Positions 10,706 through 37,325 of a stretch of DNA of 39,302 nucleotides are shown piece by piece. Within the stretch, counting starts at the first letter, position 1, and each line of letters begins with the position of its first letter. The stretch is from Nemertoderma westbladi (lineage: Eukaryota > Animalia > Xenacoelomorpha): assembly GCA_032718475.1 (NCBI GenBank), contig JAUCBJ010008489.1:1-39302 (forward strand), read 5' to 3'. The position numbers were made by a program, and so were the translations under genes. Below the pieces are notes generated by a model. It saw only the letters and a list, made by a program, of their open reading frames with translations, did no database searches and was not told the origin of the DNA.

Positions 10706-10837
10706 GTTTACCGATTCTAAAAGAATATTAACGAACCGAATAATCGTCGGCGGGAAACTGGAGGAGTTCCTTCATCGAATCGTTCTGGATGTGGATTTTC
10801 TTCTGGACTACGAAAGTTTCATAATCGAGCGGCTCAA

Positions 10838-12865: not shown

Positions 12866-13085
12866 ATATTGATATTATATTGTATTGATATTATATTGTA
12901 TTGATATTATATTGTATTGATATTATATTGTATTGATATTATTATATTGTATTGATATTATATTGTATTGATATTATATTGTATTGATATTATATTGTAT
13001 TGATATTATATTGTATTGATATTATATTGTATTGATATTATATTGTATTGATATTATATTGTATTGATATTATATTGATATTATT
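12866..13085. repeat. 16-bp AT-rich minisatellite
   Basis: (GATATTATATTGTATT)n, about 13 copies. Confidence 0.95.
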
Positions 13086-15855: not shown

Positions 15856-16330
15856 CCGTAACACTACTCAGACAGTAGTCATGATCCATTATTGATTATA
15901 AAACTAATACAGTACAGTAATAGGCCTAAATTATGTGAAAGGTATATCCACATTTTCCACAATCCTGCAATCCAGTTTGGCCTATCAATTATTTAAAATT
16001 TATTAGCACAACCGGTAGGCCTACCATTACCGTATTTAAATGGTAGGCTACGCAGTAGGCCTATAGCAGTACCGGTGCCGGTACCGGTACTAAAATACAG
16101 AAATACCTGCTTTATACCTACATCTGTACATACAATACAGCAAAATAGTGCTATATATACTAATACCGGTACTGATACAGTAGCCTGAGAGAACAGCAGT
16201 AGAGAAACCGGTAGCATGGAACCTAACATTAGACTTTTGGAGGACATAAAAAATAAAAAAAAAGGACAAAAAAAGGATTTAAACGGACAATAAAAATTAT
16301 GTGGTGTGTTTGGAGTGGTGTGTTTTCAGA

Positions 16331-16935
16331 AGGCTGCTGCAAACAGCACTAAGACCAATCGTGCCAGTGGAGTAGATGGTGTTCCCCCTGAGGTCTTTAA
16401 AATACCTGAGTGTTTAAAGCTCATCTATCCCATCATAGTAGACATGTACCGAACAACAAGAGTCCCACAAGAAATGAAAACAAATAAGTTGGTGCCAGTT
16501 CCCAAGAAGGGCAACCTAACACTCTATGGTTCTTTTCGGGGAATCTCATTGTTCTCGATTGCTGCAAAGCTATACAATATAATTATATTAAATCGCATCA
16601 GGGATCCCATTGAGAGACTGCTCCGAGGAAATCAGAATGGGTTCCATAAAGGTCTTAGGACCATTGGCATTGAGCCCATTTTGGCACATAGAAAGGATAA
16701 TTGAAGAGTTATCAAAAAAAAAGAAAGACAGGCATCTATCTGGCTATTATCTTTGTTGACTTATTCAAGGTCTCTGGCTCACGTATGTTCAGCATACTTT
16801 CATTATATGGGGTTTCTGAAGAAATTATTGCAGCAATCAGATCAGTATACGATGGTTCGACAACATTTGTGTCTACTGTTGATGGTGACACAGAACCATT
16901 TGAAGTGTTATGGGGAGTCCACCAGGGAGACACAC
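16331..16935 (+). pseudogene. Degenerate RTE LINE RT fragment
   Basis: High nucleotide identity to 28854-29456 with frameshifts; ends at GGAGACACAC where an LTR begins. Confidence 0.92.
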
Positions 16936-17186
16936 TGTTAGCGAATTCAATTCCGCTAACCACCCCATAAAGTTGGGAAAGCGGTGCCTTTAAGCAATAT
17001 TGGGGAGTACGAGGTTGATTGCCAATCAACCTCGTGTCACCCCCAATAAACGGGGACGACAACATCAGAACTCTCAATCCAACAACAAACTCTTTTCACA
17101 CACGGCGGGGACGCGTAAATAAAACAACCGGTCGGGATTCTCGGATCCCGTCACAGTCCTAACTCTAGGCCTGCCGAACTGTAACA
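16936..17186 (+). repeat. LTR copy 1 (251 bp, lacks central ~340 bp)
   Basis: TGTTAGC...CTGTAACA; both ends align to 22888-23484. Confidence 0.8.
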
Positions 17187-17200
17187 GACCAAAGATAAAG

Positions 17201-20200
17201 ATGAGTCGAGAGAAAGGAACGACACCGCCGCGGACCCCGGACGACGATCTAACGATCCGCGAGGCCACGGCGAGACGATACGAACCCACGACGCCGGTCG
17301 ATGCTACGCCGACCACGTCGACGCACGTTGACGCCACGTCGAAACGAGCAACACGGCGAACCAAGGTGTGGGGGGTCGTCTACCAGGAGAGAGCGAGTCG
17401 AGTAGAGGAGACGAGTCGGGAGGAGAAGAGAAAGACGAGTCGACGCGGAGCGAGGGTCGACGATACCGATGTCGCCGGCCAGCCACAGGCCGAGGACGAC
17501 GAACGGTCCACCGGAACGGCGACGGTGGGGCCGTCGGTACGACGTCGAACCCGGAGAGACGGAGGAGAGGTCGGCGACGAGGACGTCGGGGTTTCTGATC
17601 GACTTCGACGGGCCTACAACGCGACCCGGGAACTACTGAGAGGAGGCCAAGGAGGGGGCGAGAGATAGACGAGGTCAGGACTGAGCAAACGGACTAGGTG
17701 AGTCGAATAGACACTTTGATTACCTAGTGTGTTTTGGGCAGAGAGAACTAGCCGAGGAGAGGGCGAGGGGAGTTGCCAACGAACTGATTGAACTATGGGA
17801 GTGTGGGGTATGGAACCTAGCGTGCTCCAGTGTACATAGGGCCATACTTAGTCGATGCCCGGGGAGTTAAGTTAGTGGGTTGGAAGAGACCTGAGGAGGG
17901 CGAATCCGAGGTTAACTCCGAGGATTCGGTCTCGTCGGTCGGAGGAAGTTCCGGGAGGCGGGGGAAAGTTAGTAGGACGGAGGGGCGACGGGAGTCCGTC
18001 GCAACCGATAAGTCTGCTACATCCTCCGCGAAAGAAAGAAGGGTGCTGAAAATAAATCTGACGCATGAATTAGCGATGGTGGCGACAGAGCAGAATGAGT
18101 TAGAGAGACGATTGAGAGAGGAAACCGCATGGTTGGAGAGAGAAAGAGAGTGGGCAAGGGAGGATAGAGAGAGAGTCAAGGAGTGTAGAGAGCGGGAGAT
18201 GAGAGTAGGGGACGAGCCGGCGACGTGGCTTGAGATGGTTGCGAGAGATACCGAGTTGGCCGAGCAAAGTTTACGAGAGTGCATAGAGAGAGAGATAGAG
18301 GCAGAGCGTGAGCGGGATGATTTGCGTGCCCAGCTAAGGGGGCTTGCGCAATATCAAGCCAAACTAGACCAGCGCCGACTAGAACTGGCGCGGTTGGAAC
18401 TGTCAGAGAGTGAGACCCCACTTACAGAGCACCGGGCGAGAGAACCAGAGCTGGTGTAGCCGTACGGGCGGGGGGGGGGGGTAATAATAGTACGTTAGAA
18501 GCAGTTAATATTAATAGTACCGTAGTAAATAACCCTAATCCCTTTATTACAGGAAATAATATTTTACCGGGTAGTAGTAATTTAAATTTAAATACAAATA
18601 TTCTAAATAATAATTTCAATTCAAACCCGCAAAATAATTCGAATAATAATTTAAGTTTAGAGAATAGTAGTGATCTAAGTAATTTAAATAATTTAAATAA
18701 TAATCCCGTTTCAAATTCTAATAATTTAATTGATTTAACAAATAATATTGGGAATGGTGCTATTAATATGAGCGTGTCGGACGTACATAACCCGGCAGAC
18801 GGTGGCCTGGTAGGCCACGTAGTTAGTAGGCAGGAGGTGGCAGGGTTGAGCCAACCCGACGGCGGCCTGGTAGGCCACGCAGTTAGTAGGCAGGAGGTAG
18901 CGGGGTTGAGCCAACCCGAAGTAGGCCTGATGGGCCACGCAGTAGTAGAGAGAGAGGCGGGGGTGAATAGACCCAGCCGTAGTAGAGACAGTGCGTCGAC
19001 TAGAGAGGGGTGTAGAGACGAAGTAAGAGATATTGAAGTTAGATGTGGCGGGTGGGGGGGGGGCTACCGGCGCCCCACCACATAAGATTAGTGGCGAGAG
19101 AGGGGGGGCAGAGAATGCCCCACAAGAGGGACGCAGAAGTGTAGTAAGAGATAGTGAAGTTAGAAGTGGCGGGTGGGGGGGGGCTACGGGCACCCCACCG
19201 CGAGAGTTAGTAGAGAGAGAGGGGGGGCAGAGAGTGTCCCACAGCCGTCAGCGGATAATGCGCGGGCCGAGCTAGGTAAACCGCAACACCCGGCGACGGA
19301 GAGTAATAGGGGGATTGCGAGTATCCCCAGCGGCGTGCGATCGAGCAGAGAGAGGCAGGTTGACGTCGCGAGAGGGCAGGCGAAGCGTCGAGCCCGACCA
19401 GAAGAGAGAAGAAGAACAGTGGAGTTTAACCGGGAGGTCGACGAGAGACCTCACGAGCCGGAATACTACACAGAAAAGAGAAGAAGAGAAGATAGTAGAA
19501 GAAGTGTCGCCACGAACGATAGCAGTGCGAGGACGGATAACGGACCGTCGACAGTAGAGATGGAGTCAGGGAGCCAGTGGGGTCGAACTTCGGGAGATTG
19601 CCGTCGCCCCGGAGAAACGCACCGCACGCCAAGAGAGGGGTACAAGACGTACCAATACAGAGTCGAGAACAGGAGAGGGGATCGGAGAGAAGCTTCCCGA
19701 CGGGATATAGCTGCCGATCGAGAGTGCAGTAGTCGCGGGGAGATTCGAGATTCGCGAAGAATAAACGTCGGTTCGGAAGGGCACATGCAGACTGCAGGAC
19801 ATACTGTAGGCCTTACTGCACATACTATTATAGGCCATGCTGGGAGAGATAGAGTAGGCGATGGGGTAGCGCGAACGACGGGATTAATCCCGGAAGTCGC
19901 GGAGTACATACCGGTAGGTAGGCGAGAGGTAGGTAGGCCTATATCGGTACAGCAGCATGACTATAATAATACACAGGGACATAACATATATCCAGGGGAG
20001 GGGGGAGTTATTGGAGATAGACGTATGGGCCCCAATATATTAACATCAACCCCAGTACCAAACATACCGGCTGGGGGGGGACAGGGTGACATTCCCCCAT
20101 CACAATATCGACAATGTACCCCGATAGGAGCGAGAACATCGAACTCCCTGGACGAGAACAGGTCGTGCGGACAGTTACCACCACACGCGGCCGTGCAGGG

Positions 20201-20939
20201 GACTGCTAGTCCACAGTTAGGTGGTAGCAGGGCCACACCGTGGCAGGGACAGAAAGAAAATAACACCGTAAATAAAAACAATCCCAATATACCCAGTAGG
20301 CCGAGTCTAGACAATCGAAACATTAAATCGGTACATATAAACCTAAGCGCGATACGTGAAGGACTATACAGGAAACGCTATAATCCGGGATTCCAATGTC
20401 AATTACATCGGGACGGAACCCATAAGACCAGGAGTTGCAAGTACTGGCAAGCGTTGCCCAAACGAGATCGTGTAGCCTACACAGACGCAAACGGACTATG
20501 TCATCGATGTGTGGTAAAAGGACACAGATCCGGAGAGTGTTGGAAAGGGAGAGGATATGAAAGGACTAAACCAGGGGCAGAGAAGCCCATTAGCAAACAT
20601 AAGGGAGTCGGGAAAGTAGAAGGAGGAGTGTTGCATACACACGCAGGACGGACACAGTGCGAGGGGGCATTACATGGGCAGACACCGCGTGTACCAAGGA
20701 ACGAGCGGGGGTCGTCGAGGGCTCTAATGCCAGCGCACATACGAAGGGGGAGGCCAGCAAAGGTGGCACCGAAGAGAGTGTGGCGAAGAGTTAGAGGACG
20801 TATAGGAGGGCAGCGGGAGAGTGCCTACCGGAAGAAGGGGCACGTGAGAGTTTTTAGTCGTCCAAAGTTTTGGACTGAGGGGGGTGGGAATGAGGGCGAG
20901 ACGCCCTTCCCACGCACAAAATATAAAATAATTATTTAA
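17201..20939 (+). pseudogene. Long frameshifted gag-like ORF (coiled coil, Asn-rich tract, repeats, zinc knuckles)
   Basis: Successive + strand ORFs at 17201, 17830 (E/R coiled coil), Asn-rich 18480-18770, 18768 (60-bp repeat x3), 19033 and 19173; CQLHRDGTHKTRSC...NGLCHRCVVKGHRSGEC has BEL/Pao gag knuckle spacing. Confidence 0.7.
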
Positions 20940-20974: not shown

Positions 20975-22470
20975 TAGAAGTTAGGTAGTTAGTTAGTTAG
21001 TTAAAGAAGGGTACGTAGTACCGCTAGTTAGAGTTAGAGTTAGTAGGTACGTAGTACCGTTAGTAGAAGAGAGTTAGAGGGTACGTAAGTACCGCTAGTT
21101 AGTTAGAGTTAGAGGGTACGTAAGTACCGCTAGTTAGTTAGAGTTAGAGGGTACGTAAGTACCGCTAGTTAGAGTAAGAGTTAGAGGGTACGTAAGTACC
21201 GCTAGGTAGTTAGAGTTAGAGGGTACGTAAGTACCACTAGTTAGAGTAAGAGTTAGAGGGTACGTAGTACCGTCAGTTAGTGGAGTTAGAGTAAGAGTTA
21301 GAGGGTACGCAGTACCGTTAGAGAGTAGGAGTTAAGGGGTACGTAGTACCGTTAGAGAGTTAGTAAGAGTAAGAGGGTACGTAGTACCGCTAGCTAGTAG
21401 AGAGAGCTAGAGTAGTAAGAGGGTACGTAGTACCGCTAGTTAGGGGTGTTAGTAGTAGCAGTAGAGGGTTGTGGGCACCGCAAGCGCGACGTAGTTAGAG
21501 TTAGTAGGGAATGCGCTGAACTTAGTGGGGCACGGGCGTGATGACATGTTTGATGTAAGAGCAGGGTATGTTGATTAGGGTGGGTGCCGGGCACAAGAGG
21601 TGCCGGGCACAAAAAGAGTTAGTAGTAGAGTTAGTTGAGTTAGTAGAGAGTTAGTAGAGTTAGAAGGTGCCGGGCACAAGAGGTGCCGGGCACAAAAAGA
21701 GTTAGTAGAGTTAGAAGGTGCCGGGCACAAGAGGTGCCGGGCACAAAAGGAGTTAGTAGAGTTAGGAGGTGCCGGGCACAAGAGGTGCCGGGCACAAAAA
21801 GAGTTAGTAGAGTTAGAAGAGAGTTAGTAGAGTTAGTAGAGTCAGTAGTAGTTCACATAATTAACGTACCCACTCTGCCGGCACTCAGAGCGTCACGTGT
21901 AGGCGATGAGACGTAAAGGGGGTGTAGAGGAGTACAGACGGGCACATAGGGTGCCAGGTAGTAGAGTTAGAGAGGTAGTAGTGTAGTAGAGAGGGCACAT
22001 AGGGTGCCAGGTAGTAGAGTTAGAGAGGTAGTAGTGTAGTAGAGAGGGCACATAGGGTGCCAGGTAGTAGAGTAGAGCAGAGAGGGCACATAGGGTGCCA
22101 GGTAGTAGAGTTAGAGAGGTAGTTGAGTAGTAGAGAGGGCACATAGGGTGCCAGATAGTAGAGTGGTTGTGGGCACCGCAAGCGCCACGTAGTTAGAAGA
22201 GTGGAGTAGAGTTAGTAGAGCTAGTTAGTAGAGTTAGCAGAGCTAGTGGAGTAGAGTTAGCAGAGCTAGTGGAGTAGAGTTAGTAGAGCTAGTTAGCAGA
22301 GTTGGTAGACTCAGAGGAGTCAAGTAGAGTTAGTAGAAGTAGAGGGCTAGTAGGAGTTAGTTAGACTTAGTAGAGAGTTAGAGTCAGTAGAAAGTTAGAG
22401 GCTCTCAGTTAGAGCTAGAAGTAGTAAGAGTTAGTAGTTAGCAGAGTTAGTTAGATAGTTAGAGTTAGTA
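20975..22470 (+). repeat. Composite tandem array: C-poor AGTTAG/AGTAG linkers with short palindromic cores
   Basis: Three blocks with cores GGTACGTAAGTACC (~35-bp unit), GTGCCGGGCAC (51-bp unit) and GGCACATAGGGTGCC (~54-bp unit). Confidence 0.9.
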
Positions 22471-22849
22471 AGCAGTAGGTAGATAGTATGATAGCACAGG
22501 GGTAGCATTAGAGATTAAAGCCTTAGGGAGTGACAGAGAGTAGAGAGTAATAGTGCGGAGTGCGAAGAGAGCGTGGGCGCAATTCAAGTGTGGGGGAGGA
22601 GAAGTGAGAGGAAGAGTGTGGGACGAGGAGGTCCGGGGGTATGCGAGAGTTGGAGTAGAATGGTGAGAGTGTTGGGGAAACAAAAATTGTGTGAGAGAAG
22701 CGCACGATCGGCCCGACACGAGACGCCAGAGGGTAGTGACATCATACCCATAGGGAGCGGCCTGGAAAGCCGACTCCGAAAAAAAATAGACCCACCCCAC
22801 ACCCGATAATAGATCGAGTTCCAGCGGAATTGTAGCGCACTTTAGTTGG

Positions 22850-22887
22850 ATGCTATCTTCTTACCGGGAAGATAGCATGGGGGGGAG
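22850..22887 (+). promoter_or_regulatory. Hairpin plus polypurine tract
   Basis: ATGCTATCTTC..GAAGATAGCAT perfect 11-bp inverted repeat, then a G-run plus AG abutting TGTTAG. Confidence 0.75.
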
Positions 22888-23484
22888 TGTTAGCTTATCC
22901 AATTCCGCTAACACAAACCCATAGAGTGAGCCATAAAGCAATATTGGGAGCACGAGGTTGATTACCAATCAACCTCGTGTCAGCCCAGTAAACGGGGACA
23001 ATAGGCCCCAAAGGAGACACACACAATAAGGGTCAGGGGTTACTCCCCTGACAAGAGAGAGAATAGCTGGGGTGAACGGGAAACACACCAGGGAAGGTGA
23101 AGGGGCGAGAAGTGGGATATTAGCCAATGGGGGGGCAAGGCATCGATTAGGTAGTAATATGGCCAACCGTGCAGTATATTACCTGTTGGTGCTCCCCTAT
23201 TCAGTCAGTTATCTCAGTCGGTCAGTACAGTCAGGTAGTACGGTGACAGTTAGGACCGTCACCGCCGTCATCACATTACCGGTACCAGTGCAGCAGTATT
23301 CAGTGCTATCTGCTATTGTACCTATACACTATATGTTATCTCAATTTATATCCTTAACAACAACGTCAGAACAACAACTCTTTTCATCCACACGGCGGGG
23401 ACGCGTACTTAACCAATACCGGATAAACCGGGATCCTCTCGGATCCCGTCACAGTCCTAACTCTAGGCCTGCCGAACTGTAACA
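22888..23484 (+). repeat. LTR copy 2 (597 bp)
   Basis: TGTTAGC...CTGTAACA, preceded by PPT; contains CCAAT-like motif. Confidence 0.82.
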
Positions 23485-23960
23485 GACCAAAGATAAAGAT
23501 GAGTCGAGAGAAAGGAACGACACCGCCGCGGACCCCGGACGACGATCTAACGATCCGCGAGGCCACGGCGAGACGATACGAACCCACGACGCCGGTCGAT
23601 GCTACGCCGACCACGTCGACGCAGGTTGACGCCACGTCGAAAACGAGCAACACGGCGAACCAAGATGTGGGGGGTCGTCTACCAGGAGAGAGCGAGTCGA
23701 GTAGAGGAGACGAGTCGGGAGGAGAAGAGAAAGACGAGTCGACGCGGAGCGAGGGTCGACATACCGATGTCACCGGCCAGCCACAGGCCGAGGACGACGA
23801 ACGGTCCACCGGAACGGCGACGGTGGGGCCGTCGGTACGACGTCGAACCCGGAGAGATGGAGGAGAGGTCGGCGACGAGGACGTCGGGGTTTCTGATCGA
23901 CTTCGACGGGCCTACCTCGCGACCCGAGAGCGACTGAGAGAGGCCAAAGGAGGGGCGAAG
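23485..23960 (+). mobile_element. Truncated second (tandem) copy of the element's internal 5' region
   Basis: Near-identical to 17187-17665; ORF MSREKGTTPPRTPDDD repeated. Confidence 0.93.
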
Positions 23961-23962
23961 AT

Positions 23963-24190
23963 TGTCATTATTGAGGAGCTTTTCAAAGTGGGCTTTCCAA
24001 CCATTGAGGCGATCGGCTGGTGATTCAGCCTTAACCTTGGTGGTTGGTTGGCTTTTCCGCCCAGTAAGCAGATTGATCGATTTCCATGCCTGGGATGATT
24101 GCCTGCTGTCGTCAGCATCATTGATGGCATCAACCTGTTGGTTTATTAGCTCCTGTAGATTAGCAGAGTACTGCCTGTTCAGGTTCCTAG
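23963..24190 (-). pseudogene. Inverted RTE LINE fragment
   Basis: Reverse complement matches ~28536-28761 at high identity. Confidence 0.92.
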
Positions 24191-24420
24191 GTAGACACCT
24201 CTAGCGTCTGTAAGATAAAGGTTGGTGAATATGAAAAATACTGGTTGCTGAAAAATTGCGATTTGAAAAATAGTAGAAGTTACCTGTAGACACCTCTAGC
24301 GTCTGTAAAATAAAGGTTGGTAAATATGAAAATACTGGTTGCTGAAAAATTGCGATTTGAAAAATAGTAGAAGTTACCTGATGCTAAGTGTAGACACTCG
24401 AACACCTGTAAAATAAAGGC
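24191..24420. repeat. 95-bp tandem duplication plus partial third copy
   Basis: GTAGACACCTCTAGCGTCTGTAA...GTAGAAGTTACCT at 24191 and 24286. Confidence 0.88.
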
Positions 24421-24654
24421 TTATGATTGGACGGATGAGTAGCGTTGGGGGACTAATAACGCCTCTAGCGGAAGATGCGGGAACTTGAGAAGTTGCCATG
24501 GATACGGATTAAATGCTGACATCTGATTGGTTGAAATAATAACGACCACCGCTAAAGGTTGAAATAGTGGCTTCTGATTGGACAGAGTACCAGAAATGGA
24601 CGGTAATGATGGGCTACGGGTGACCATTATCCAGTGTCATAGTATTGTATACTA

Positions 24655-25642
24655 CTGTCCGGTTATATTACAGGCACGAGCGTGCATGAGGAAAATTTGG
24701 TTGTCCGACTTAGAGTGGGACGAACCAATATCTCCTATACATGCAAAGCAGTGGAGGGAGTGGGAAGCCGAGTTGCATCTATTGAAAAATATAGATGTAC
24801 CCCGTTCCTACTTTCCAAATCAGCTGGTATTCCCAGCTGATTTAGAACTGCACCTGTTCAGTGACGCAAGTGACACCGGCTTTGGTATGGTAGCCTACCT
24901 TCGCCGAGAGGTAAGTCAGGACAAGTTTGAGACGGCTTTTGTGACTTCTAGATCAAAGACAATGCCGGTCAAATACATGACTGTCCCTCGTGCAGAGTTA
25001 CAGGCGGCTGTAGTCTCAGTCGAGGTAAGTAAGCAGATAACTGAGGAGTTAGACACGACATTGACCTTATTCTATTGGACGGACGCATCCTTGGTGTTAG
25101 TATACATTGCGGCCGACAATATTGCACTAAAGACATTTGTGGCCAACAGACGCACTCAGATCGTCGACTTTTCGACGAAGGAACAATGGAGACATTGTCC
25201 GGGAGTGTTGAACCCGGCCGACATAACTTCGAGAGGTGCAATGCCGGCGGAATTCTGTCAGGAAGAGTCGCAGGAGTTTTGGTTGCATGGACCTGATTTT
25301 CTAACGAGGACACAGGAACATTGGCCAGAGCGACTAAAGATTGTGACCAATCCGATGCCTGAAGATGCAGAAGTCAAGGTGGAGAAAGTCTCTAAGTCGA
25401 AGTCTAAAGCCAAACTCAAGTCATTGGAGCGGCCTGAAGAGTCATTGGAGCGGCCTGAAGAGTCATTGGAGCGGCCCGGAGACCTGTCAGACCAACAGAC
25501 TTACGTGACTACTAGGTCCGGAAGGGTAAGTTACGACGTAAAACCACCCTTACAGACTAAACCGGAGTCACAATTGGTAAGTGACGGACAGAAAATGACC
25601 GGATGGAGTCTTTGGTTTCCAAACCTGCGGGTTTGGATTTGA
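24655..25642 (+). pseudogene. BEL/Pao pol: RT connection and RNase H, 5'-truncated
   Basis: LEWDEPI, LHLFSDASDTGFGMVAYLR, TVPRAELQAA, FYWTDAS, FVANR, WRHCPGVLNPADITSRG, FWLHGPDFL. Confidence 0.95.
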
Positions 25643-27282
25643 AACTTCCATTAATTAGCGGACAACCGTCGCTGGCATTAGAGCCATGTAGTATTTATGA
25701 CAAATTACTAAATTCGTCTGCCTCTTGGCTGACAATTTGTAAAAGAACTGCGTGGTTAAGCCGATACATTTTGTACCTTTGTTTAAAACATTCGAAACAT
25801 TTGAGAGAACCATTGAGCACCAATAGTGAGCGAAATCGGAAATTGAAACAACCTCTGACAGAGGATGAGATTGATCAAGCGGAATTAAAGCATTTGAAAC
25901 ATTATCAAGTGTGTGCCTTCCCAAAGGAATTCAATCTATTATTGGCTCAACGACCAGTTCTCTATAAACCCCTTAGAAAATGGAGTCCATTAATCCATAA
26001 GGGTTTAATTTGTCATAGATCGAGAATCCAGACTGTCGACATAAACTCACAGTTTCGGTTCCCAGTGATAATCCCTAGTCACCCAATAGAATTGCAAAGA
26101 GCGATTCTATGGGATATACACAAGAGGTTGCATCACGCGGGAAAGTTACACTGTCTGTCGGCAGCGAGACAGCGATTCATTCTATTGCAGCCAAGCAGGG
26201 CAGTCGGCACTATGTATGACGCCTGTCTGGTTTGCAAGAGGGTGAATGCCAGAGTATTGGAACAGGAGATGGCTGAACTCCCGGAAGCGAGAGTGCAGGC
26301 ATATGACCCACCCTTTACGAACACAGGGGTGGATTGTTTTGGTCCGATTGAAGCAAAGAGTGGACGGCTGACCCACAAGCGATGGGGTCTGCTACTGACA
26401 TGCATGGCTAGTAGAGCCATACACATTGAGCGTGTGGCAGACATGTCGACCAAATCTCTGCTCCTGGCCTTAAAGAGATTTATGGCCAGGAGAGGACTAG
26501 TAAAGGCGTTCTACTCCGATAAGGGTACAAACTTTGTCGGAGGGAATAGCGAGTTAAACGCGGCTCATAAAGCGGCACAGAATAAAGAAATTTCTGCAGC
26601 ACTTTTGCCGCAAAGAGTAGAGTGGAGATTCAATACTCCAGAAAGTCCTTGGAGAGGAGGAAGTTGGGAGAGTTTAGTTCGCTCTGTAAAGCAGGCCATT
26701 GCCAAGACGTTGCCTGTAAACAAACAACTTACCGACGACGAACTGGTCACAGCTTTCATTGAAATCGAGCATACCCTAAACTCGAGGCCGATAGCTATGT
26801 TGCCAGACGGTGTTGCATTAACGCCGAATCATTTGCTAATGCAGAGTCCAGCATTTCTTGTGCCGGCATCAGAACCCGTTAGTGCCGACCTATATAGTCG
26901 TAAGAGCTGGAAAATGACTCAATTAGTCGCGTACACATTCTGGGAATATTGGCGGGAATACTATCTTCCCACCATATCCACCAGAACAAAGTGGTACAAA
27001 ACGGTTCAGAGTCTCCAAAGGGGAGATTACGTACTGATAACCGAGCCGATTGTCAAGAGAAAGTATTGGGAGACAGGATTGATCTTGCACACACACCCAG
27101 ACGTGCAAAACATAGTGCGCACAGTCACTGTGAAAATTAGGTGCAAGTGTCCGCACCCAAAAAAGTGTAAAACTAATGGTTTACACACCTTGGACCGACC
27201 GGTCCAAGATATTGTGTTATTAGAGGAGACACGTATCGAGACGGGAGATTATAATTTGTCTCCTGCCTCTAAACTGAATTAG
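25603..27282 (+). CDS. BEL/Pao integrase (HHCC + DDE core + C-terminal domain)
   Basis: H..LHHAG..CLVC, PFTNTGVDCFGP, TCMASRAIHIE, YSDKGTNFVG, SPWRGGSWESLVRSVK, LNSRPI, LTPNHLL, FWEYWREYYL; in the -1 frame relative to the RNase H ORF. Confidence 0.95.
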   Translation: MESLVSKPAGLDLKLPLISGQPSLALEPCSIYDKLLNSSASWLTICKRTAWLSRYILYLCLKHSKHLREPLSTNSERNRKLKQPLTEDEIDQAELKHLKHYQVCAFPKEFNLLLAQRPVLYKPLRKWSPLIHKGLICHRSRIQTVDINSQFRFPVIIPSHPIELQRAILWDIHKRLHHAGKLHCLSAARQRFILLQPSRAVGTMYDACLVCKRVNARVLEQEMAELPEARVQAYDPPFTNTGVDCFGPIEAKSGRLTHKRWGLLLTCMASRAIHIERVADMSTKSLLLALKRFMARRGLVKAFYSDKGTNFVGGNSELNAAHKAAQNKEISAALLPQRVEWRFNTPESPWRGGSWESLVRSVKQAIAKTLPVNKQLTDDELVTAFIEIEHTLNSRPIAMLPDGVALTPNHLLMQSPAFLVPASEPVSADLYSRKSWKMTQLVAYTFWEYWREYYLPTISTRTKWYKTVQSLQRGDYVLITEPIVKRKYWETGLILHTHPDVQNIVRTVTVKIRCKCPHPKKCKTNGLHTLDRPVQDIVLLEETRIETGDYNLSPASKLN

Positions 27283-28049
27283 TGTTGGGCGCAACTCACT
27301 TCGTATGCATTCCTCGTATGCAAATACAAGGAAATGCATAGGAGCGGGGTTGTGGTGATTTGCGTTGAGTTTTGTCTAGTGGGTATCAAAACAAAATTTT
27401 ATTCTCAAAATTTTTGGAAAAAATTAAAATTTTAAAAAATTAGAAGTGAACCCAAGACAATTCCAGACGCTGTGTATAGACGCATTTTGAATTCGTCTAT
27501 AGATAAACAGTAATTTGAAAAGTCGTGAAGCCTGGAAAATAGCATTTAGAAACCATGGTGACGGCTATATTACGTAGGAGTGTAAATTGAGTTTAGCAAC
27601 TTCCACGGATTGGTGCCAACAGTGCAACTAAGGTGCTAAAGGTTAGTAGCACCAGAGGCGTACATGGACCCCACTCAGTAGTTCGCAGGATGTGTGATGT
27701 TCGATTATCACCTGTGGGAACCTGTGGGTTTGGTATAGTCGAGTATTGTGGCTATAGTCCTTTCTAACTACTGTAGTTTAGTACGAGTAATGGGAGTAGT
27801 TTGGGCATCAAAAAGTGAGTTGGTCATGGCCAGTTTATCTCCAAAGTTTTTGCGCTATGCATGGGAATAGGTTAGAGGATAGTTAGTTAGGAAGAGACGG
27901 GATCTAGAGAGTCGAACCTGAACTGTTGGAAGGCGGGGGGGGGGTTCGGGAGGTCTGTCCTTCGGCGACATCTAACTGATTTACCCACAGTGTAATTGGT
28001 TACGTAACGGCACTTATTGGGATATATATATGTATATACGCGAGGCATA

Positions 28050-28163
28050 ATGGAGAGGGATATTAGAGCGCAACCGCACAGAGGATTTACTGCCAGAGAG
28101 GAGGCGGAGCTACCATTCGCGCGACCAGGATGTAAAGACTCTAACGTTTACTACCATGGGCGG
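28050..28163 (+). pseudogene. N-terminus of the BEL accessory ORF, cut off by RTE insertion
   Basis: MERDIRAQPHRGFTAREEAELPFARPGCKDSNVYYHGR joins in frame to SVMELNGKYK at 30431 after removing the RTE and one TSD. Confidence 0.8.
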
Positions 28164-30418
28164 CATACCGCCTTATTGTGGCCAAGGTAAGACTTAGTCT
28201 GCGTGCTAGCAGAACAACGAAATCTGCCTTGCCGCGGCATGACTGGTCCTCTCTGTTGCAACAGCCAAGTGTGAGATCCAGCTTCACACTACAGCTGAGC
28301 AACAGGTATGAGGCTCTTGCCTCTGAGGCGGCAGATCACTGTGAGGGCTATACTGCCTTTACAGAAGCAGTTAAGTTAGCAGCTGCAGAAACAGTTCCTG
28401 TATACCCTCGAAACAGGAAAAGGGCCCCCTGGACTGACAACAAAATTCAGAAGTGCCGAAATGACCTTCATAAGGCGCAGAAAGAGTCCCGACTCAAACA
28501 GACTACAGCGGCCAAGAATGCAGTTAAGGCTGCATCTAGGTCCCTGAACAGGCAGTACTCTGTTAATCTACAGGAGCTAATAAACCAACAGGTTGATGCC
28601 ATCAATGATGCTGACGACAGCAGGCAATCATCCCAGGCATGGAAATCAATCAATCTGCTTACTGGGCGGAAAAGCCAACCAACCACCAAGGTTAAGGCTG
28701 AATCACCAGCCGATCGCCTCAATGGTTGGAAAGCCCACTTTGAAAAGCTCCTCAATAATAACAGGGTATTGCCTGATAACTTTATAGAAGTAAAAGTGTC
28801 TGAGTCTGTACTCCCAGATATTCCTATTGGCGATATCTCCTTTGCAGAAGTGCAGGCTGCTGCAAAGAGCATTAAGACCAATCGTGCCAGTGGAGTAGAT
28901 GGTGTTCCCCCTGAGGTCTTTAAAATACCTGAGTGTTTAAAGCTCATCTATCCCATCATAGTAGACATGTACCGAACAACAAGAGTCCCACAAGAAATGA
29001 AAACAAATAAGTTGGTGCCAGTTCCCAAGAAGGGCAACCTAACACTCTATGGTTCTTTTCGGGGAATCTCATTGATCTCGATTGCTGCAAAGCTATACAA
29101 TAGGATTCTATTAAATCGCATCAGGGATCCCATTGAGAGACTGCTCCGTGGAAATCAGAATGGGTTCCGTAAAGGTCGTGGGACCATGGAGCCCATTTTG
29201 GCACTTAGAAGGATAATTGAAGAATTATCAAAAAAGAAAGACAGGCATCTGGCTGTTATCTTTGTTGACTTCTTCAAGGCCTTTGATTCAGTCTCTCGCT
29301 CACGTATGTTCAGCATACTTTCATTATATGGGATTCCTGATGAAATTATTGCAGCAATCAGATCAGTATACGATGGTTCGACAACATTTGTGTCTACTGT
29401 TGACGGTGACACAGAACCATTTGAAGTGTTATGGGGCGTCCTCCAAGGAGACACACTTGCACCATTCTTGTTCATTATTGTGGTTGACTATGTTCTACGC
29501 ATGTCCTTAGATCATCATAATGATGATGGGGTGATGATAACTCCACCTACTGGCTCCAGAAGTCGAGGAAATCCTGCCAAGTACCTAACTGATCTAGACT
29601 TTGCTGATGACTTAGGAGTACTCTCAGAATCATTAGAGGGAGCCCAACGGCTCCTCAGCTCATTAGAACATGCTGCTTCTAGTGTTGGTCTTTTTATTAA
29701 CTCCAGAAAGACCAAAGTTCTGACCGTTAACTTTGAAAGTCCTCAGCAAGTCTCTGATCGGATGAGCATAAGCTCAAAGGATGGTATGCTTGAGCATGTG
29801 GACGACTTCTGTTACCTGGGATCATGGATCCGGAAGTCAGGTGAGGACCTTCGAATACGTAAGGGAAAGGCATGGGCAGCCTTGAATAGGCTTTCCAGGA
29901 TTTGGAAGTCACCGAGAATTAATCGGAAACTTAAGGTCCGATTATTTAGAGCAGCAGTAGTTCCAGTACTCCTCTATGGGAGTCCATGCTGGGCTCTAAC
30001 TGCTGAGGACACCAAATCTCTGGATGGCACATTCACAAGAATGCTACGCCGGGTTCATTGTGTCAAGTACAATGCACACATCTCCAACCAGACACTATAT
30101 AACATTGGAGGTGTCTCATTGGTTCCCCCAAGCTTGACACTAGAACAAAACCGCCTCCGCTTTGCAGGACATTGCTTTCGCCGTAAGGACCAGCCAGTGC
30201 ATAATCTTGTACTTTGGCAGCCTCATGGAGTGAATAAGCATGGTGGACAGCCCATGACTTTCTTGAGACGCATCTTAAAGGACACTGGCCTTAAAGATGC
30301 GGATGATCTAGCAAATGTCATGGGTGATAGGGAGTTGTGGCGGTGCAATTTTGTTGACAAGCCGGCACAGCATTCTTAAAAATGCAGCTGCAATGCAGCA
30401 TGCCGATCCTAGTAGTAG
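28164..30418 (+). mobile_element. Young 5'-truncated RTE-clade LINE
   Basis: 12-bp TSD TACCATGGGCGG (28152-28163 and 30419-30430), (TAG)n tail, short 3' UTR. Confidence 0.95.
28178..30379 (+). CDS. RTE non-LTR reverse transcriptase ORF (endonuclease lost by 5' truncation)
   Basis: PVPKKG, FRGISLISIAAKLYNRIL, QNGFRKGR, FVDFFKAFDSV, GVLQGDTLAPFLF, DFADD, FCYLGS, RLRFAGHCFR; 733 aa uninterrupted. Confidence 0.95.
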   Translation: MAKVRLSLRASRTTKSALPRHDWSSLLQQPSVRSSFTLQLSNRYEALASEAADHCEGYTAFTEAVKLAAAETVPVYPRNRKRAPWTDNKIQKCRNDLHKAQKESRLKQTTAAKNAVKAASRSLNRQYSVNLQELINQQVDAINDADDSRQSSQAWKSINLLTGRKSQPTTKVKAESPADRLNGWKAHFEKLLNNNRVLPDNFIEVKVSESVLPDIPIGDISFAEVQAAAKSIKTNRASGVDGVPPEVFKIPECLKLIYPIIVDMYRTTRVPQEMKTNKLVPVPKKGNLTLYGSFRGISLISIAAKLYNRILLNRIRDPIERLLRGNQNGFRKGRGTMEPILALRRIIEELSKKKDRHLAVIFVDFFKAFDSVSRSRMFSILSLYGIPDEIIAAIRSVYDGSTTFVSTVDGDTEPFEVLWGVLQGDTLAPFLFIIVVDYVLRMSLDHHNDDGVMITPPTGSRSRGNPAKYLTDLDFADDLGVLSESLEGAQRLLSSLEHAASSVGLFINSRKTKVLTVNFESPQQVSDRMSISSKDGMLEHVDDFCYLGSWIRKSGEDLRIRKGKAWAALNRLSRIWKSPRINRKLKVRLFRAAVVPVLLYGSPCWALTAEDTKSLDGTFTRMLRRVHCVKYNAHISNQTLYNIGGVSLVPPSLTLEQNRLRFAGHCFRRKDQPVHNLVLWQPHGVNKHGGQPMTFLRRILKDTGLKDADDLANVMGDRELWRCNFVDKPAQHS

Positions 30419-30430
30419 TACCATGGGCGG

Positions 30431-33400
30431 TCCGTGATGGAGCTAAATGGAAAATACAAGCTGAGTTATGATAAGGAATTACGGAGGGAAAGAATGAGAG
30501 CGTTGGGGGACCGGATGGAAGTTTTGCGGAGAGAGTATCGCACGCGGTATCCCTACGACTTCGCTTTGGACGTGTGCGACATTAGCGCAGATCCGGACGA
30601 GGAAATCGCACGACTATACCATATGAATATGTATTTACGACACGAGGAGCCTCTACCTGCAGTCCGAGATCAGTTCGACGGAATGCATCTGTACCGGAGG
30701 ACTCGAGGTGAGGATCAGGAGACGCCGAAAGTCTTCAGCGTGTACAAGCTGTTCTACAAGTATGGTCAATGCATGAATAAGCAGGACGTGGCGATTCCCG
30801 ACCGATTAGACGAGCAACATCCAGAACCGATATTAACGCGATGTCCAGCTCACCAATTCCTTAGATACAACGAGGGAGGTTACCCGATGAGCAACCCGAT
30901 GATCAGTATCGACTTCAGCGGAAAGCGACCTCCGAGACCCATTACGCCGACCGTTACGACATTGGATCCGTATACGGAGATTAAACCCTGTTCGACACCC
31001 AGTTTGATAGAGACGGCAGCGGCCATTTCGCTGTACCGAGCCTACAAGGATCTAGAGGCGCGGCGCAAAGCGGCGCGGGACTCGGGTACCAAACCCGCGG
31101 GTTTGGAGCTCTCGAGTCCCTGGACTGCGTTTACTTCACCTCACCGAGTGAGAAGCCTCACGCCTGAGCATCAGGACGACATAGACGCGTTGCGGCAGGA
31201 GGAGCGAGCAGCGAAGGCGAAAGAGTTATTTGAGAACAGGATAGCGGAGTATAATAAGACTGCGGATAGACATCAAGAGGAGACGAGGAGAGTGACCGGA
31301 TTTGTTCCACAGGTCGTATCTCAACCCGGACCGGTGTATTATTCTGACGGCACCGAACCTGCGATATTAGTAGATCATCCGGAGTCGTGAGAACGATACG
31401 ATTCTTGCTGATGGTAAGAATGGCGGACCATTGGAACGTTGACTGTCTACGGGAAGTTTTATGCGCGAAGTTCTTGCGTGATGTCCCAATGCAGATCACA
31501 GATTACGACACGTTGGATAAGATTGGAGCTCCGGGGAAGGAGAGTAAGCTATTCGGATGGTTGGATAAGTACATCAAGGTATGGGTCGTGGTGGCTACAT
31601 TCCCAGATGACGAGGAGGTAGACCAGACGTGGCTGAGGAGGAAGGGTTCTTATACCCGATATGATGACCACAAGGCTATCGAGCGCATGTGGACCCCATC
31701 AGACGAGATTCAGCGTCAGTGGAGGAAAACGGAGGAATCACTGCAGGATTGGAGGGTGATGTTCTACGACAATGAAGGAGGGTCCCATCAGGAATGTTTG
31801 ACCAGCAAGTGTATTCAAATTCGTGCGGCCGATGGTGTGACTCATGTGTTTATGCGTGTGAGGGCGGATCGAGAGAGACCGGAGCCCATCATAACGACAC
31901 AATATCGGAAGGGGAAGGATCCTAGGGAACAGATTTTGGAGGTATGCAGGCGAGGAGGTATGCACGGAGCGGAGCGTATCGACGCCAGGATGTTACCCAA
32001 GAAAGTTAGAGAGGCTATTCTCAACCAAGATTACGTCAAGGTGGGATCGGGAGTCCAGAGCGATTTGGAGAGTGACTTCAACGCCATGACTGATCTGGAA
32101 GATAGATTGCCAAGACCGTTTGTCGACACCAAGCTATTGTTGCTATGGGCACAGGATATTGGAATTTATAGGGAGTATCCCAACTCTGCCAAGACTGGTA
32201 TGGGCTTTATAGCACACTTGTTGTATAATTGGGACTTTAAGTTAAAGACGCAGAAGAAGTACGAGGAGGCGTATGGCGAATACAACACGCCACCGGGAGC
32301 GGAGTTCAAATCCCACTTCAAGCGGCAAGCGTTAGTGTATTGGAACATTTGCGCGCCACCCCGTGCGTCGCTACAATATTATTTGGTGCTTGAGTCGAAC
32401 ACGGTGACTTGTTTATTAGCGGATATCGTTGCGCGAGTTTTGAAGCGTCATCCATTGGTATTCGGAGGAGATCAATACGTTCGCTCGAAAGGGGGAATCC
32501 AATCCGACGTGATGAAGCGTTTCTTAACCCCGTTCTTCAACCAATCGTTAGAGAATACGTCGATGGTTAGGAGGTTTATCGTTAGTAGTACCTGACGTTA
32601 GTAGAGGTGTTTGGAGTAGATCTTCCGGTGGAGAAGACATATCCGAAACGAACGCGGGAGGAAATATTGGAGATAGAGGACAAGGGCGAGGATGTTTACT
32701 TTGTTCCGGATCGACAACCATTGACCGGAGAGGACGACATCGTATTAGACATTGGGAAGGAAGGAAGTGCGAAACCGATTGGAGACTCATATACGAGAGG
32801 GCCTGGTTTCCACAAGCACGTAGGTGCAAATTGTGCGGCAGCACAAGGCACAATTTAAAGTCATGCAACGCGGTAGTAGAGGCGGCGCATAAGGTCTGTC
32901 GTTGGTGTAATGAGACCGACCATTCGTTTCACACGTGCACCGTCTTCATTTCTCAATGTGGATATTGTGGGGTAAAGGGACATCGTAGCGCGAGATGTCA
33001 GCTGCGAGATGATTCCTTTCAAAACCATAGCGCTAACCTACTTCGGGAGATGTTAGATAAGTGGGAGAGTGTGTTTAATATTACCATATTCAAGCGCAGA
33101 TGCGTTGGTTACCATTTAAAGCGGGATATGGGTTTTGGGCGGTAGACCCATCGCATGTTGCGTACGAGCCATATCTACAATCGCTACCACAATATCAGGA
33201 ACTCATCCTAACTGCTCAAGACCTTCCACAGAACACTGGAGTTATCGTAGTCCGAGAATACTTCAGACAATTGAACATGGACAATAAGTACACATGGAAC
33301 TTCGTTGCTATTTGCGATCGCATCACGAAGGGTGTATTTACGGAGACTAGAAAAGTGGTACGCGCGCGAGGTGATTGGAGGATGGCGGCTATACAATACC

Positions 33401-33696
33401 GCAACGAATTCTTGTTGACTCATGTGCCAGTGGGTTCATTGACCGCTGAGAGGATACAAGAACAGAGGATCACAGCGACCACAGCGACGACCACTGGAGC
33501 TCAAGGCTCGCGGAAAGAACCAGGAGGAGAGGTCCAAGACAAGCGTCAAGTCAAGGACGATCACTATCACTCAATTATAGAAGCACAACGGTTGCAGCGC
33601 AAGGCGCAGGGAGCGTCTGAGAAAGCGCGTGTGCAACTGCATAAGGAAGAGTTGGCGGAAGCGACCACGGGAGCACGACAATTGGGACGAGGCTGA
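30431..33696 (+). pseudogene. BEL accessory ORF: unknown N-terminal region, DEDDy-like 3'-5' exonuclease, three CCHC zinc knuckles, charged tail; four -1 frameshifts
   Basis: FYDNEG (Exo I), LPKKVREAILNQDYVKVGSGVQSDLESDF (Exo II), FVDTKLL, GMGFIAHLL, YWN...LQYYLVLE (Exo III-like); CKLCGSTRHNLKSC, CRWCNETDHSFHTC, CGYCGVKGHRSARC. Confidence 0.75.
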
Positions 33697-34355
33697 GGAA
33701 GAAGCACAAGCCGAGAATCTGTCGGGGCTCAGGGAACGTCGTCGCCGGTTCCGGGGAGTGACGCCTCACGGACGCCGTCAACGGAGTCGACTGGAGGTAG
33801 ATTAGTGTATCTGGGAAGAGGGCGAAAGAGAGGAGCGAGCCCAAAGAACCCAGGAGCGGGTCGATAATACATTATAGCACAGGGCAACAGACTCTAGATA
33901 TATACATCATCGTCGCTCTGATGTATATTGTAGCATTTGGAAATCTTCGACTAGACTCATATACACTAGTTGAGTTATTTTGAATTTATATTATGAGAGA
34001 GGCGAAGGAAGTGATTGGGGAGACAAACCTGCGGGTTTGGCTTACTCCTTTCACTTGCCCTAGCAAAATTTTATATTTGATTTTGTATGTAGTAATCATT
34101 ATGTAGTAAGAACGAACGAGAAACAATATTTTGTAAATTTAATTTGTATGTAATAATCGTTAAACAGTGAGAGAGATAATATTTGTAAATTTAATTTGTA
34201 TGTAATTCATTATGCAATATCTATGGCAATATTTGTAAATAGTAGAATTATTGTGTTATTTAGATTATTTGGAAGAAATTTATTTTGTTTTGTATACATC
34301 ACCTTATACTCTTCTACAATTGGAGGGAAACATTGTATGATTTCCCTTGGAGCGG

Positions 34356-36878
34356 TGTTACGGTATATGGCGCTGTATCCACATTATTAGTCATTATGCA
34401 GTATGCAATATTATTCCATTATGCAGTATGCAATATTAGTCCGTTATACTGTACGTAATATTAGTCCATTGTGCAGCATGATATTTTAGATAAGGCATAA
34501 TAACGCAATGATATTTAGATAGGGAAATCGAAACACCCATATATTTGAATCCATCCATTTTGTATAGTATGTAGCCCTACCTACGTAATTTTGTATTAGG
34601 ATATATGTAGATAGTTCCAGGGTAGCAAGTTTATTCGGACCCTGGATTTTGTGCTTGCTGATATTAGCATCGATAGGGCTAGCATATAGGGACGCTGTCC
34701 TGGCCATTCAGCAGCCAGGGACGTGAACCATTACCATATATGGTAATAATTCGAGGTTTGGGCAAGCGATAGGGCTACAATCCGGCCTCCTTATTGGACT
34801 AACTGCTTCCAGGTTGGTCTAATGCTAGCACGGACTGGAGAGCCAATAGGAGAGCGATTGAGTCACCCTATTGCATCACCCCATCCGGATCACCTATAAA
34901 TTGGCGGTGTGCCGGTAGAGCCTCACATGACACCTCACATGATCTGCTATCACCTTGTACTTGCTGAGCTGTCTCTATTCATTTTGACGGATATTTTAGC
35001 GTATTTTCTGCAATTTGCTAATTTTGATTAATTTCTTGGAATGATTTGCTAGTGCGATTACTTTTGATTGTGTTTCTCAATTAATTCCTTCGATTACTGC
35101 TAATTACAACTGAACTATGATTTCTACCTTTTGATTAATGGTTCTATGTGATTCCTTTCTGCGCAATAATCCTAAGGGATTTCTGAGACTGTCAGACTTT
35201 GAGATTTGCATGCGCCGCTACGGTAGCTATTAGCATAATGGAGGGCTAAGGTGCCAGTGGGCGGTGGGCACATCGGGGGGTTGAGCGACTAGGGAGAGCG
35301 GAGGATTCAAAGACGGGCAACGCTGGCGGGGGTCACCGTTGCAGGCGGGCACTTGCACTGTAACACGCAGACCATTCGCCGATACAGTAACTAGGGGGCT
35401 GATGATCCAGGTTTTGTCTCTATTTAGTATTAGGGGGGCAGGAATCGGGTTAGTTAGGAATCCTAGATGTATCCGGGAGAGGCCTGCGCGTATTACAACG
35501 TTGAGTGTGGAGTACGAATAGTGAGTCGCATAATTGTGGGCTATACACAGTAGTTAACTGCATAATTGCGAACTGTGATTGCTGACGCTGATTGGTGTGT
35601 TATTGAAGTGTGCCTATGATTGTGAATGTTTAGGTAGGCGCCCTTTTCTCTTTGATTGATTTCTATTTCTTAGTTACAACAATTAGTTACTGATTAGGTC
35701 AAAGTAATACGGCAATTTAGGCTATTACTAGCGAAACCTGTTGCGTGATAAATTAGAATTACGTATTCTGGAACTCTTAGTAATTAGTACGCTGTTAAAT
35801 ATTTGTGACTGTAACTGATTAGTAAAAATTAAGAATTAGTACGCAGCATAGCGGAGAGTAGCTAAGGTAATAATTAGAGTACTGTAAACTATTCACGCTG
35901 AGCGGTTATTTGCATTAGCGGGCAATCAGCTAGATCGCACTATTCGGTACGCACGATACGCTAGTAATTTGCTGGCCTAAAGCCAGCCGCAGGCAAGTTT
36001 AGACCCAGAGCGGTACTATCCACGTAGAAACGATTACTGTATCATTTTGATTATTTAAATATTCTTGCATTCACACATTACGTTAGAGAACCCCCAGTAT
36101 TCGCGATTAGAAAAGACGTAGGCAATAGCGTGCTTTAATAGTGATAGAATTAGGCGTAAGAATACTCTGAGTGCAAAGCCTCTCGCACTCGTCTTAAGTA
36201 AGCTTAGGGAGCCGACTCGGGTTTATTGTTTTGGTTATTCCCGCGTGGCTCATAGATTCGAACAGTTAGCTCTCTATCGAGCGATCGGTAGAGAAAGGAA
36301 CAAGCGATTTTGCAGGAGTTGTGTAAAATTAGTAAAATATATTAGCGGACGGCAGATTAGCGCCATCCAACGGTAAGTAGCGGTTTTGTATTTAGCCACC
36401 TTTACAATTTAGTAATATCACGCTCCTGATCCCCTTTACTTAACAGTAGAGCATTCTTTGTGTCTTATTGGTTAGGCAAGAGCTCATTAGGTTGACAGAA
36501 GGATATTAACGGGTATTGGTCTGTTCAACAGTGCTGCTGTTAGTATAGAGGTCGCGGTTGTTTATCACAAAGGGTTAAGGAAACATCCAACCCACACTTG
36601 ATGAGGTACAGCTTCCATTCTTTGTCGCCGCAGACGCCTGTTGGATTTACTGCGTTAGGAAAGTAGCTGACTCTGACAGCAGAGAGCTTTATGCAATCAA
36701 TATAGTCTCAAAGGGAATCAAAGGCGGCAAGTATTAAGACCTATTATTGAACAATTATTAGTAACTAACCTTAGTATAGATACCATTGTATGTTAATTTA
36801 TCACTTTAAATTACATTCTTATGATTAACGGTCTCAGACAGACTGCTTGGCGCCTGGCTTCCGCCAATTTTTACAACA
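34356..36878 (+). repeat. Putative 3' LTR of the BEL element (start supported, end tentative)
   Basis: AGGGAAA..TTTCCCT hairpin and GGAGCGG purine-rich tract then TGTTAC; 25-bp tandem repeats (34385-34480), CCAAT (~34844) and TATAAA (~34895); no 5' LTR in the window for comparison. Confidence 0.4.
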
Positions 36879-36990
36879 ACCAACAATGACCAACTACAGA
36901 TACGACCCGCCAAGCTGCTGCAAAGCCCCTATATTTAGTGGGCCAGTTATTTCTCTTACATTAGAATCCCTGAAACCAGTGTCGCAGCCA

Positions 36991-37325
36991 CTACTACAGT
37001 ACTATTACTACTACTACGATCGGCATGCTGCATTGCAGTTGCATTATATATATATTACATACATATTAAGAATCCTATGCCGGCTTGCTGACAAAATTGC
37101 GCCGCCACAACACCCTATCACCCATGACATTCGCTAGATCATCAGCATTTTCAAGACCAGTGTCCTTTAAGATGCGTCTCAACAAAGTCATCGGCTGGCT
37201 GGCACCATGTCTATTCGTTCCATGAGGCCTCCAAAGCATAAGATTATGCACTGGCTGGTCATCACGGCGAAAGCAATGTCCTGCAAAGCGGAAGCGGTTC
37301 CGTTCAATACAATTTTGATGGAATA
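36991..37325 (-). pseudogene. RTE LINE 3' end fragment
   Basis: NRFRFAGHCFRRDDQPVHNLMLW...DDLANVMGDRVLWRRNFVSKPA, same 3' UTR (TGCAATGCAGCATGCCGATC) and (TAG)n tail as 28164-30418. Confidence 0.93.

Follow-up and report, generated by a model that had tools for sequence, protein, structure and literature searches.

What does a BEL/Pao retrotransposon carry between its integrase gene and its 3' long terminal repeat (LTR), in the env position, and of what use could it be to the element? The question is raised by a contig of Nemertoderma westbladi (JAUCBJ010008489.1, assembly GCA_032718475.1), of which the whole 39,302-nucleotide stretch that was analysed is called the window here. The window holds one dead copy of such an element, with a long, broken accessory gene in that position, and this gene is real cargo of a multi-copy BEL/Pao family. 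Based on motif order, a single distant homolog (P0001) and related copies in public runs, the preferred reading, with a probability of roughly 0.55, is that the family carries a gene for a DEDD-type 3'-5' exoribonuclease with three zinc knuckles, which may grip and trim RNA tails in the manner of TbRND, the mitochondrial RNase D of Trypanosoma brucei.

The accessory gene and its carrier element

The accessory region consists of a 38-codon head, an insertion and five pieces of open reading frame (ORF) that together reach from the integrase side towards the 3' LTR (Table 1). The head (28050-28163) lies in frame 3 and the pieces at 30419-31387, 31348-32592, 32589-32855, 32552-33142 and 33079-33693 lie in frames 2, 1, 3, 2 and 1, an order that corresponds to four successive -1 shifts. 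Head and pieces are separated by an RTE-type non-LTR retrotransposon flanked by a 12-bp target duplication at 28152 and 30419; frames and duplication bear out the initial annotation, which had joined the head and five same-strand pieces by removing the RTE and correcting four -1 shifts. The RTE has a depth of about 0.4-2.3 million (0.8-2.3 million in run X1), with loose ends at both borders, and four further fragments of the same very high-copy family (9612-10065, 16331-16936, 23963-24190 and 37006-37305) are 71-98% identical to the inserted copy. No transmembrane-like segment was found in the seven pieces (highest 19-residue Kyte-Doolittle mean, 1.34; the block lost from the window copy, described below, not included). 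As no piece has a membrane-like segment, the accessory region is not an env gene, and an env function for it was rejected.

The stretch or part of it was found in six of seven listed public runs, from four studies, and the best run may be the window's own source. Contigs were mapped on 24200-36990 in 30 bins (32 pieces and 15 joints listed), and those of runs X1, X2 and X3 cover 30 of the 30 bins, passing through pol, spacer, ORF and LTR without a gap. In X1, 5,388 contig pieces fall on 30432-34420 with identities from <90% to >99%, and because so many pieces with such a spread of identity lie on 4 kb, the accessory gene is not single-copy. Summed depth in this run was about 63-104 thousand in pol, 25-44 thousand in the accessory region and 60-166 thousand in the LTR, with the final bin at 12 thousand, values that are sums and not copy numbers. 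One contig (X4, 27093-27410) crosses the integrase stop, and linkage in the other copies rests on this contig and the gapless cover. The initial annotation placed the gene in the env position as part of the element, and the many related copies and the gapless cover to the LTR uphold this reading over that of a single-copy host gene.

Two further kinds of variation were seen among the copies. A deletion of 30459-30792 that keeps the frame occurs in X1, X2, X3 and X5, so there is a subfamily with a shorter upstream ORF. At 33890-34355 depth climbs ahead of the purine tract and loose ends cluster at 33594, 33721, 33874 and 33994; from these loose ends and depths, other elements apparently have the same 3' end and LTR behind different upstream sequence.

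Variants on 30432-34420 were taken from the best-supported 40 of 307 rows. Other copies carry indels at about 31393, 32785 and 33074-33078, each fitting a frame shift of the window copy, and a block of roughly 150 bases at 32573-32594, lost from the window copy, which fits the remaining shift by frame arithmetic. The stop at 33694 is absent from most other copies. Because the other copies differ by indels at these sites, the four shifts represent decay of the window copy; programmed frameshifting and introns were rejected as their cause.

Codon positions were scored at 40 sites, comprising 37 of the 40 variant rows (three rows were dropped, of which two fell on a break and one on a stop) and three sites from the wider contig mapping. 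Sites that vary among the other copies fall at third positions in 22 of 27 cases (p 3.8e-7), while near-fixed differences of the window copy do so in 5 of 13, as neutral decay predicts. By piece, the third-position share was 4/6 upstream, 11/12 in the exonuclease piece, and 3/4 before and 4/5 after the stop at 33694 in the C-terminal piece. The integrase provided an uninformative control (1/9 listed sites at third positions, but all of them near-fixed differences of the dead copy), and the codon test was run without a positive control on variable pol sites. The bias at variable sites, together with the differences of the other copies at all four breaks, argues for a selected cargo and a dead window copy; the accessory gene is apparently under selection in the element family.

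Given the extra block and the unshared stop at 33694, a single ORF would span about 1,200 codons. The initial annotation had put the protein at about 1,100 aa, a length that is not established in view of the lost block, the unshared stop and the possibility of two ORFs. The latter turns on the stop at 31388-31390, which adjoins the first indel on its 5' side and shows no difference among the best 40 of 307 rows; it may be common to other copies, which would mean two ORFs. An arrangement of two genes, with a 358-codon ORF followed by a second one for exonuclease and knuckles, about 860 codons long, from an ATG at 31411 or 31420 and possibly reached by read-through, has a little under an even chance and would fit any mechanism. 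It is favoured by the position of the indel at about 31393, which is 3' of that stop, by the start of P0001 only about 60 residues ahead of Exo I and by the in-frame deletion seen in four runs, but both frames are in register in other copies, a 1-in-3 coincidence if the ORFs were separate.

The carrier is a decayed BEL/Pao LTR retrotransposon. Its Pfam matches follow the Pao-type order of pol domains, Peptidase_A17 and then Integrase_H2C2 and DUF5641. The stretch from gag to the RNase H remnant holds no long ORF, only repeats and rearranged pieces, and the reverse transcriptase appears to be lost from the window copy. The LTR is long (2.2 kb), with TATAAA at 34895 and a longest plus-strand frame of <=84 codons. 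Upstream of gag, a near-palindromic 28 nt of the duplicated leader occurs at 17009-17036 and 22951-22978 and could form an RNA hairpin. A search of two stretches for self-priming found no complement of >10 nt between leader and LTR, the 5' LTR junction being lost in the window.

Table 1. Features of the BEL/Pao copy and its accessory gene, with positions in the window
Feature	Position	Strand	Evidence or remark
gag-like region, broken, probably same element	17123..20939	+	four pieces of ORF; single exact CCHC knuckle (20499); zf-CCHC_3 E 0.038
Rearranged stretch at expected protease/reverse transcriptase place	20990..24190	.	simple repeats; leader and gag-start duplicate 22888-23962; inverted RTE fragment 23963-24190
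BEL/Pao pol remnant (Pao Peptidase_A17 / RNase H region)	24578..25642	+	PF05380 E 2.1e-32
Integrase with C-terminal DUF5641	25585..27282	+	PF18701 E 1.7e-17; PF17921 (Integrase_H2C2) E 3.6e-5
38-codon head, ending in first copy of target duplication	28050..28163	+	both sides of insertion covered at element-like depth
5'-truncated RTE-type non-LTR retrotransposon inside ORF	28164..30430	+	RVT_1 E 1.8e-28; second duplication copy 30419-30430
Upstream accessory piece, 358 codons including head	30431..31390	+	no family match; N-terminal part of long ORF or separate ORF
Exonuclease-bearing piece (predicted)	31394..32573	+	Exo I D31768/E31774; Exo II D32062; Exo III Y32380/E32392
Linker piece, lost block on one side, frame break on other	32594..32785	+	
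Three exact CX2CX4HX4C zinc knuckles	32825..32998	+	starts 32825, 32897, 32957
C-terminal piece	33079..33867	+	most other copies without stop at 33694; frame likely runs on to 33867
Purine-rich tract preceding LTR	34347..34355	+	sequence
3' LTR, about 2,230 bp, TGTT...AACA	34356..36585	+	right end inferred, most likely 36585; raised depth across LTR, drop after 36582

Identity of the encoded domain

The predicted exonuclease piece contains FYDNEG (31762), LPKKVRE (31993), VKVGSGV (32035), FVDTKLL (32119) and QYYLVLE (32374), so that the Exo motifs of the initial annotation all stand in order at the places it gave; Exo III reads YxxxE, with E replacing D at the last acidic position, and the acidic set becomes D-E-D-E. 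The KVG-x-G-x3-D form of Exo II and the W..P...Y-x3-acidic form of Exo III, both clearer in P0001, resemble those of WRN-exo, EXD1, EXD2 and Mut-7 (Nibbler), proteins that have no direct sequence match to the window protein, and the placement in their branch that the initial annotation proposed is tentative.

Among 1.84 billion proteins the only match was P0001 (E 1.6e-6), a single-member ENA record of 648 aa on a 9,449-bp contig, with 27% identity over 162 aa from Exo II to past Exo III. Its motifs (D-V-E, KVGSNIKAD and W..PL..Q.YY..CE) are followed by three knuckle-like motifs, so that it shares with the window protein the exonuclease region, the YxxxE form of Exo III and the three downstream knuckles, whereas it lacks the long N-terminal part and is distant in sequence. 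In Pfam, P0001 gave sub-threshold matches to PF01612 (E 0.2) and PF00098 (E 0.046). Other searches for homologs were empty. Word-index searches found none among longer proteins, only P0001 itself in a further search, and none with the two-sequence profile; locus scans found nothing in viral, metagenome or genome contigs, and a scan of viral contigs for RNase D relatives was likewise empty. In phages and plasmids all tblastn matches had E >2, one of them (H23) being dropped after inspection, and a PDB sequence match to rotavirus VP4 (E 0.012-0.8) was taken as chance.

Both proteins were compared with a reference profile of 13 RNase D/PolA-type domains (those of E. coli RNase D and PolA, and 11 chosen for diversity from 46 listed matches). 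P0001 scored 21 bits, with the DxE of Exo I and the D of Exo II aligned; D31768 and E31774 of the window protein align in turn with the D-V-E of P0001. When the two-sequence alignment of window protein and P0001 was compared with the profile, 45 columns around Exo II were matched at a probability of 70% and a score of 37.8 (maximum in 40 column shuffles, 18.0), which placed D32062 opposite the Exo II aspartate of RNase D.

Of 30 neighbours found for the window piece in the ESM Atlas, 25 were PF01612 (DNA_pol_A_exo1) clusters (0.91). For P0001 the top neighbour was a cluster with PF01612 and zf-CCHC, mostly from Euglenozoa (0.86), which is treated as a lead only and may represent the TbRND family, and the second was an EXD1-like cluster, likewise of PF01612 (0.77). 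The predicted order of three strands and then alternating helices fits a DnaQ-like fold, in low-confidence models: AlphaFold models of the window protein reached pLDDT (predicted local distance difference test) values of 34-35, and because of this the fold searches, in which no nuclease of the clan was listed, are uninformative. By way of P0001 and the embedding neighbours, the domain very probably has a DEDDy-type exonuclease fold; this part of the initial annotation appears likely through P0001, the profile and the Atlas, although the window protein itself matches no domain or fold directly.

The three exact zinc knuckles of the initial annotation are present. In 2,000 base shuffles of 27283-34355, one knuckle arose in 10 and at least two in none. 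Their matches to Lin-28 knuckles are weak (E 0.037-0.25) and those to the knuckles of P0001 stronger (E 3e-4), while P0001 matches structures of the HIV-1 nucleocapsid (E 1e-4).

Proposed function and competing explanations

On the preferred reading, the knuckles would grip the 3' tail of a single-stranded RNA and feed it to the exonuclease site, where the bound tail would be trimmed, both steps being proposed by analogy with TbRND and for a presumed RNA substrate. The protein might be expressed from a subgenomic message, and catalysis with E at the last acidic position is predicted from the motifs. As a target, the first choice would be the RNA-level defence of the host, in the form of small guide RNAs or of U-tails added to element RNA, the latter of a kind reportedly restricting LINE-1. 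Such a target is tentative and well short of an even chance, though perhaps slightly likelier than the element's own replication intermediates; other RNA targets were also considered for the predicted trimmer. In its fullest form the proposal would be that BEL/Pao acquired a TbRND-like tail nuclease as a counter-defence, with knuckles that read U-rich or unprotected 3' ends and an enzyme that erases uridylation or destroys silencing guides. This is a speculative extension that we consider unlikely; if true, an LTR retrotransposon would encode an enzyme that suppresses RNA silencing and is common to a wider unnamed protein family, as suggested by P0001.

Several results weigh against the preferred reading. 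The Pfam check proposed by the initial annotation returned no exonuclease or zf-CCHC match for the accessory pieces of the window at E up to 1, and no exonuclease match to the window piece was found in NCBIfam, PHROGs or PDB sequences. All seven window proteins score below 0 against the 13-domain profile (the exonuclease piece at -0.7 bits), the window piece by itself scores 17.95 against the DEDDy profile and its shuffles 17.87, so it does not rise above them, and the Exo III stretch, YxxxE in the window protein and in P0001, stays unaligned to the reference profile in both profile tests. The Atlas match shares 161 features, fewer than the 170 typical of the same family, and 4-10% of shuffled proteins also attain a value of 0.9. 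About 30 extra residues separate Exo I from Exo II, and because of this insertion and the E at the last acidic position catalytic activity may be lost. Regarding the family, 11 of the exonuclease sites in the codon test lie where a single divergent contig of X5 provides the cover, and the scored rows are the best 40 of 307. No contig among the 32 pieces and 15 joints listed joins integrase to exonuclease or shows an empty RTE site, and self-comparison found no second LTR in the window, which thus lacks the 5' LTR. In the rotifer study, the exonuclease ORFs of rotifer elements (discussed below) show no clear tie to copy number (PMC5408684).

Some of the same observations would suit a helper in replication, in which the exonuclease trims the 3' end of the element's own RNA, the primer or the cDNA ends in the particle and the knuckles load the enzyme in a nucleocapsid-like manner. 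By the match of P0001 to HIV-1, the knuckles belong to the type found in retroviral nucleocapsids, and DEDDy enzymes act on single-stranded DNA too; processing of element RNA 3' ends is also what the rotifer paper proposes (PMC5408684). Most LTR elements, as is generally known, replicate without such a gene, and in X1 and X3, but not in X2, the pol bins have about twice the depth of the ORF, so that the ORF may be missing or diverged in some relatives, although depth is not copy number. Taken together, this role is doubtful, with odds clearly against it.

The replaced residue also admits a pseudo-nuclease, that is, a protein with a DEDD-type fold and weak or no catalysis that would bind RNA as an adaptor, as EXD1 or Maelstrom does in the piRNA pathways. 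The E for D at Exo III occurs in the window protein and in P0001, the insertion after Exo I is large, and the EXD1-like cluster ranks second among the neighbours of P0001. The four positions are nevertheless acidic in both proteins despite their divergence, which fits retained metal binding, and rotifer ORF3s with a D to E swap were judged possibly active (PMC5408684). We regard a pseudo-nuclease as improbable.

Still less likely, and quite improbable, is that the domain is no DnaQ-like exonuclease and the order of its motifs a look-alike. The window protein has no direct family, structure or fold match, as such a look-alike would have it, but P0001 forms a bridge that overlaps the profile at Exo II, and the Atlas neighbours and the strand and helix order of the low-confidence models point the same way. 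It is very improbable that the gene belongs to the host as a single copy, or is a neutral passenger caught by chance between integrase and LTR: with the 5' LTR missing, enclosure by two LTRs is not seen, but thousands of variant contig pieces, gapless cover with pol and LTR and the third-position bias among copies speak against it.

For the preferred reading, the cargo is apparently under selection in a high-copy family, and the knuckles suggest a definite mechanism, tail binding and trimming, by analogy with TbRND as a solved enzyme. Were the target to be host small RNA or U-tails, the product would be a retrotransposon enzyme acting against RNA silencing.

Other features and comparison with known systems

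Elsewhere in the window, an uninterrupted 416-codon host-like ORF of WD40 type lies on the plus strand at 6267-7517, with weak WD40 matches and an N-terminal glycine motif that we take to recall SEC12/PREB. Apparent remnants of a second LTR element occupy 1225-5255 (gag-like pieces, a knuckle at 3822 and a start resembling reverse transcriptase at 4734), with a direct repeat at 912-1092 and 5083-5255 and no Pfam match at E 0.05. Tandem arrays are located at 10794-12412, 12835-13121 and 15076-15922, with units of 44/59 nt, 16 nt and 68 nt, respectively.

Exonuclease capture by retroelements has precedents. The initial annotation mentioned cases from rotifers and nematodes, of which the rotifer case is documented and a nematode precedent was not found in the literature covered. 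The LTR retrotransposons Juno and Vesta of bdelloid rotifers carry an ORF3 for a predicted DEDDy exonuclease with a DEED set (PMC5408684), and the Athena/Terminon elements are likewise described with a DEDDy ORF3 (PMC6431247, PMC5718144). The rotifer ORF3s and the window gene are alike in being non-env ORFs after pol, of predicted DEDDy type, without a membrane segment and with one D to E replacement. They differ in the acidic set, DEED in the rotifer ORF3s and D-E-D-E in the window gene, which has a BEL/Pao carrier and a coding region several times the size of the domain. Three CCHC knuckles follow the domain in the window gene, whereas the available parts of the rotifer paper report knuckles only in gag/pol and, for two DEDDy ORFs, a Cys-His-Cys motif.

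The layout of exonuclease and knuckles is itself known from a cellular enzyme. TbRND joins a DEDD exonuclease to a set of four CCHC fingers, which hold U-rich single-stranded tails of RNA and pass them on to the two-metal site; when overexpressed, the enzyme depletes small guide RNAs (PMC7797062). TbRND and the window protein, whose frames are in register in other copies, both place tandem CCHC fingers after the exonuclease, putative in the window protein. In TbRND, a cellular enzyme, the four fingers come soon after the domain and Exo III has D, whereas the retrotransposon protein has a longer linker ahead of its three knuckles. The PDB sequence searches listed no TbRND chain, so the shared layout may be convergent.

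Neither an exonuclease ORF in BEL/Pao nor a retroelement ORF3 with exonuclease and knuckles was found in the literature, the search leaving most subscription papers, Repbase Reports and supplements uncovered, and a term search of PMC13524379 and PMC2774666 found no mention of an exonuclease. The suggestion of the initial annotation that exonuclease plus CCHC in a BEL element might be new appears to hold, within that search, for BEL/Pao, but not for the layout, which TbRND already has (PMC7797062); capture and layout are each known, and their combination in BEL/Pao appears to be undescribed.

A further parallel is provided by orchid Gypsy elements, which carry an AlkB RNA demethylase of shown activity as an extra ORF (PMC9289625). 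Both cases represent a captured RNA-modifying enzyme, putative in the window gene, as an additional ORF of an LTR element, and the AlkB ORF is kept across subfamilies; the enzyme and the element superfamily differ, and the activity of the window gene is predicted only. With the BEL/Pao gene, DEDDy exonucleases, known as cargo of rotifer elements, would reach a second LTR superfamily, and the question raised in the rotifer paper as to the role of the exonuclease ORF3 would become testable with simple RNA assays.

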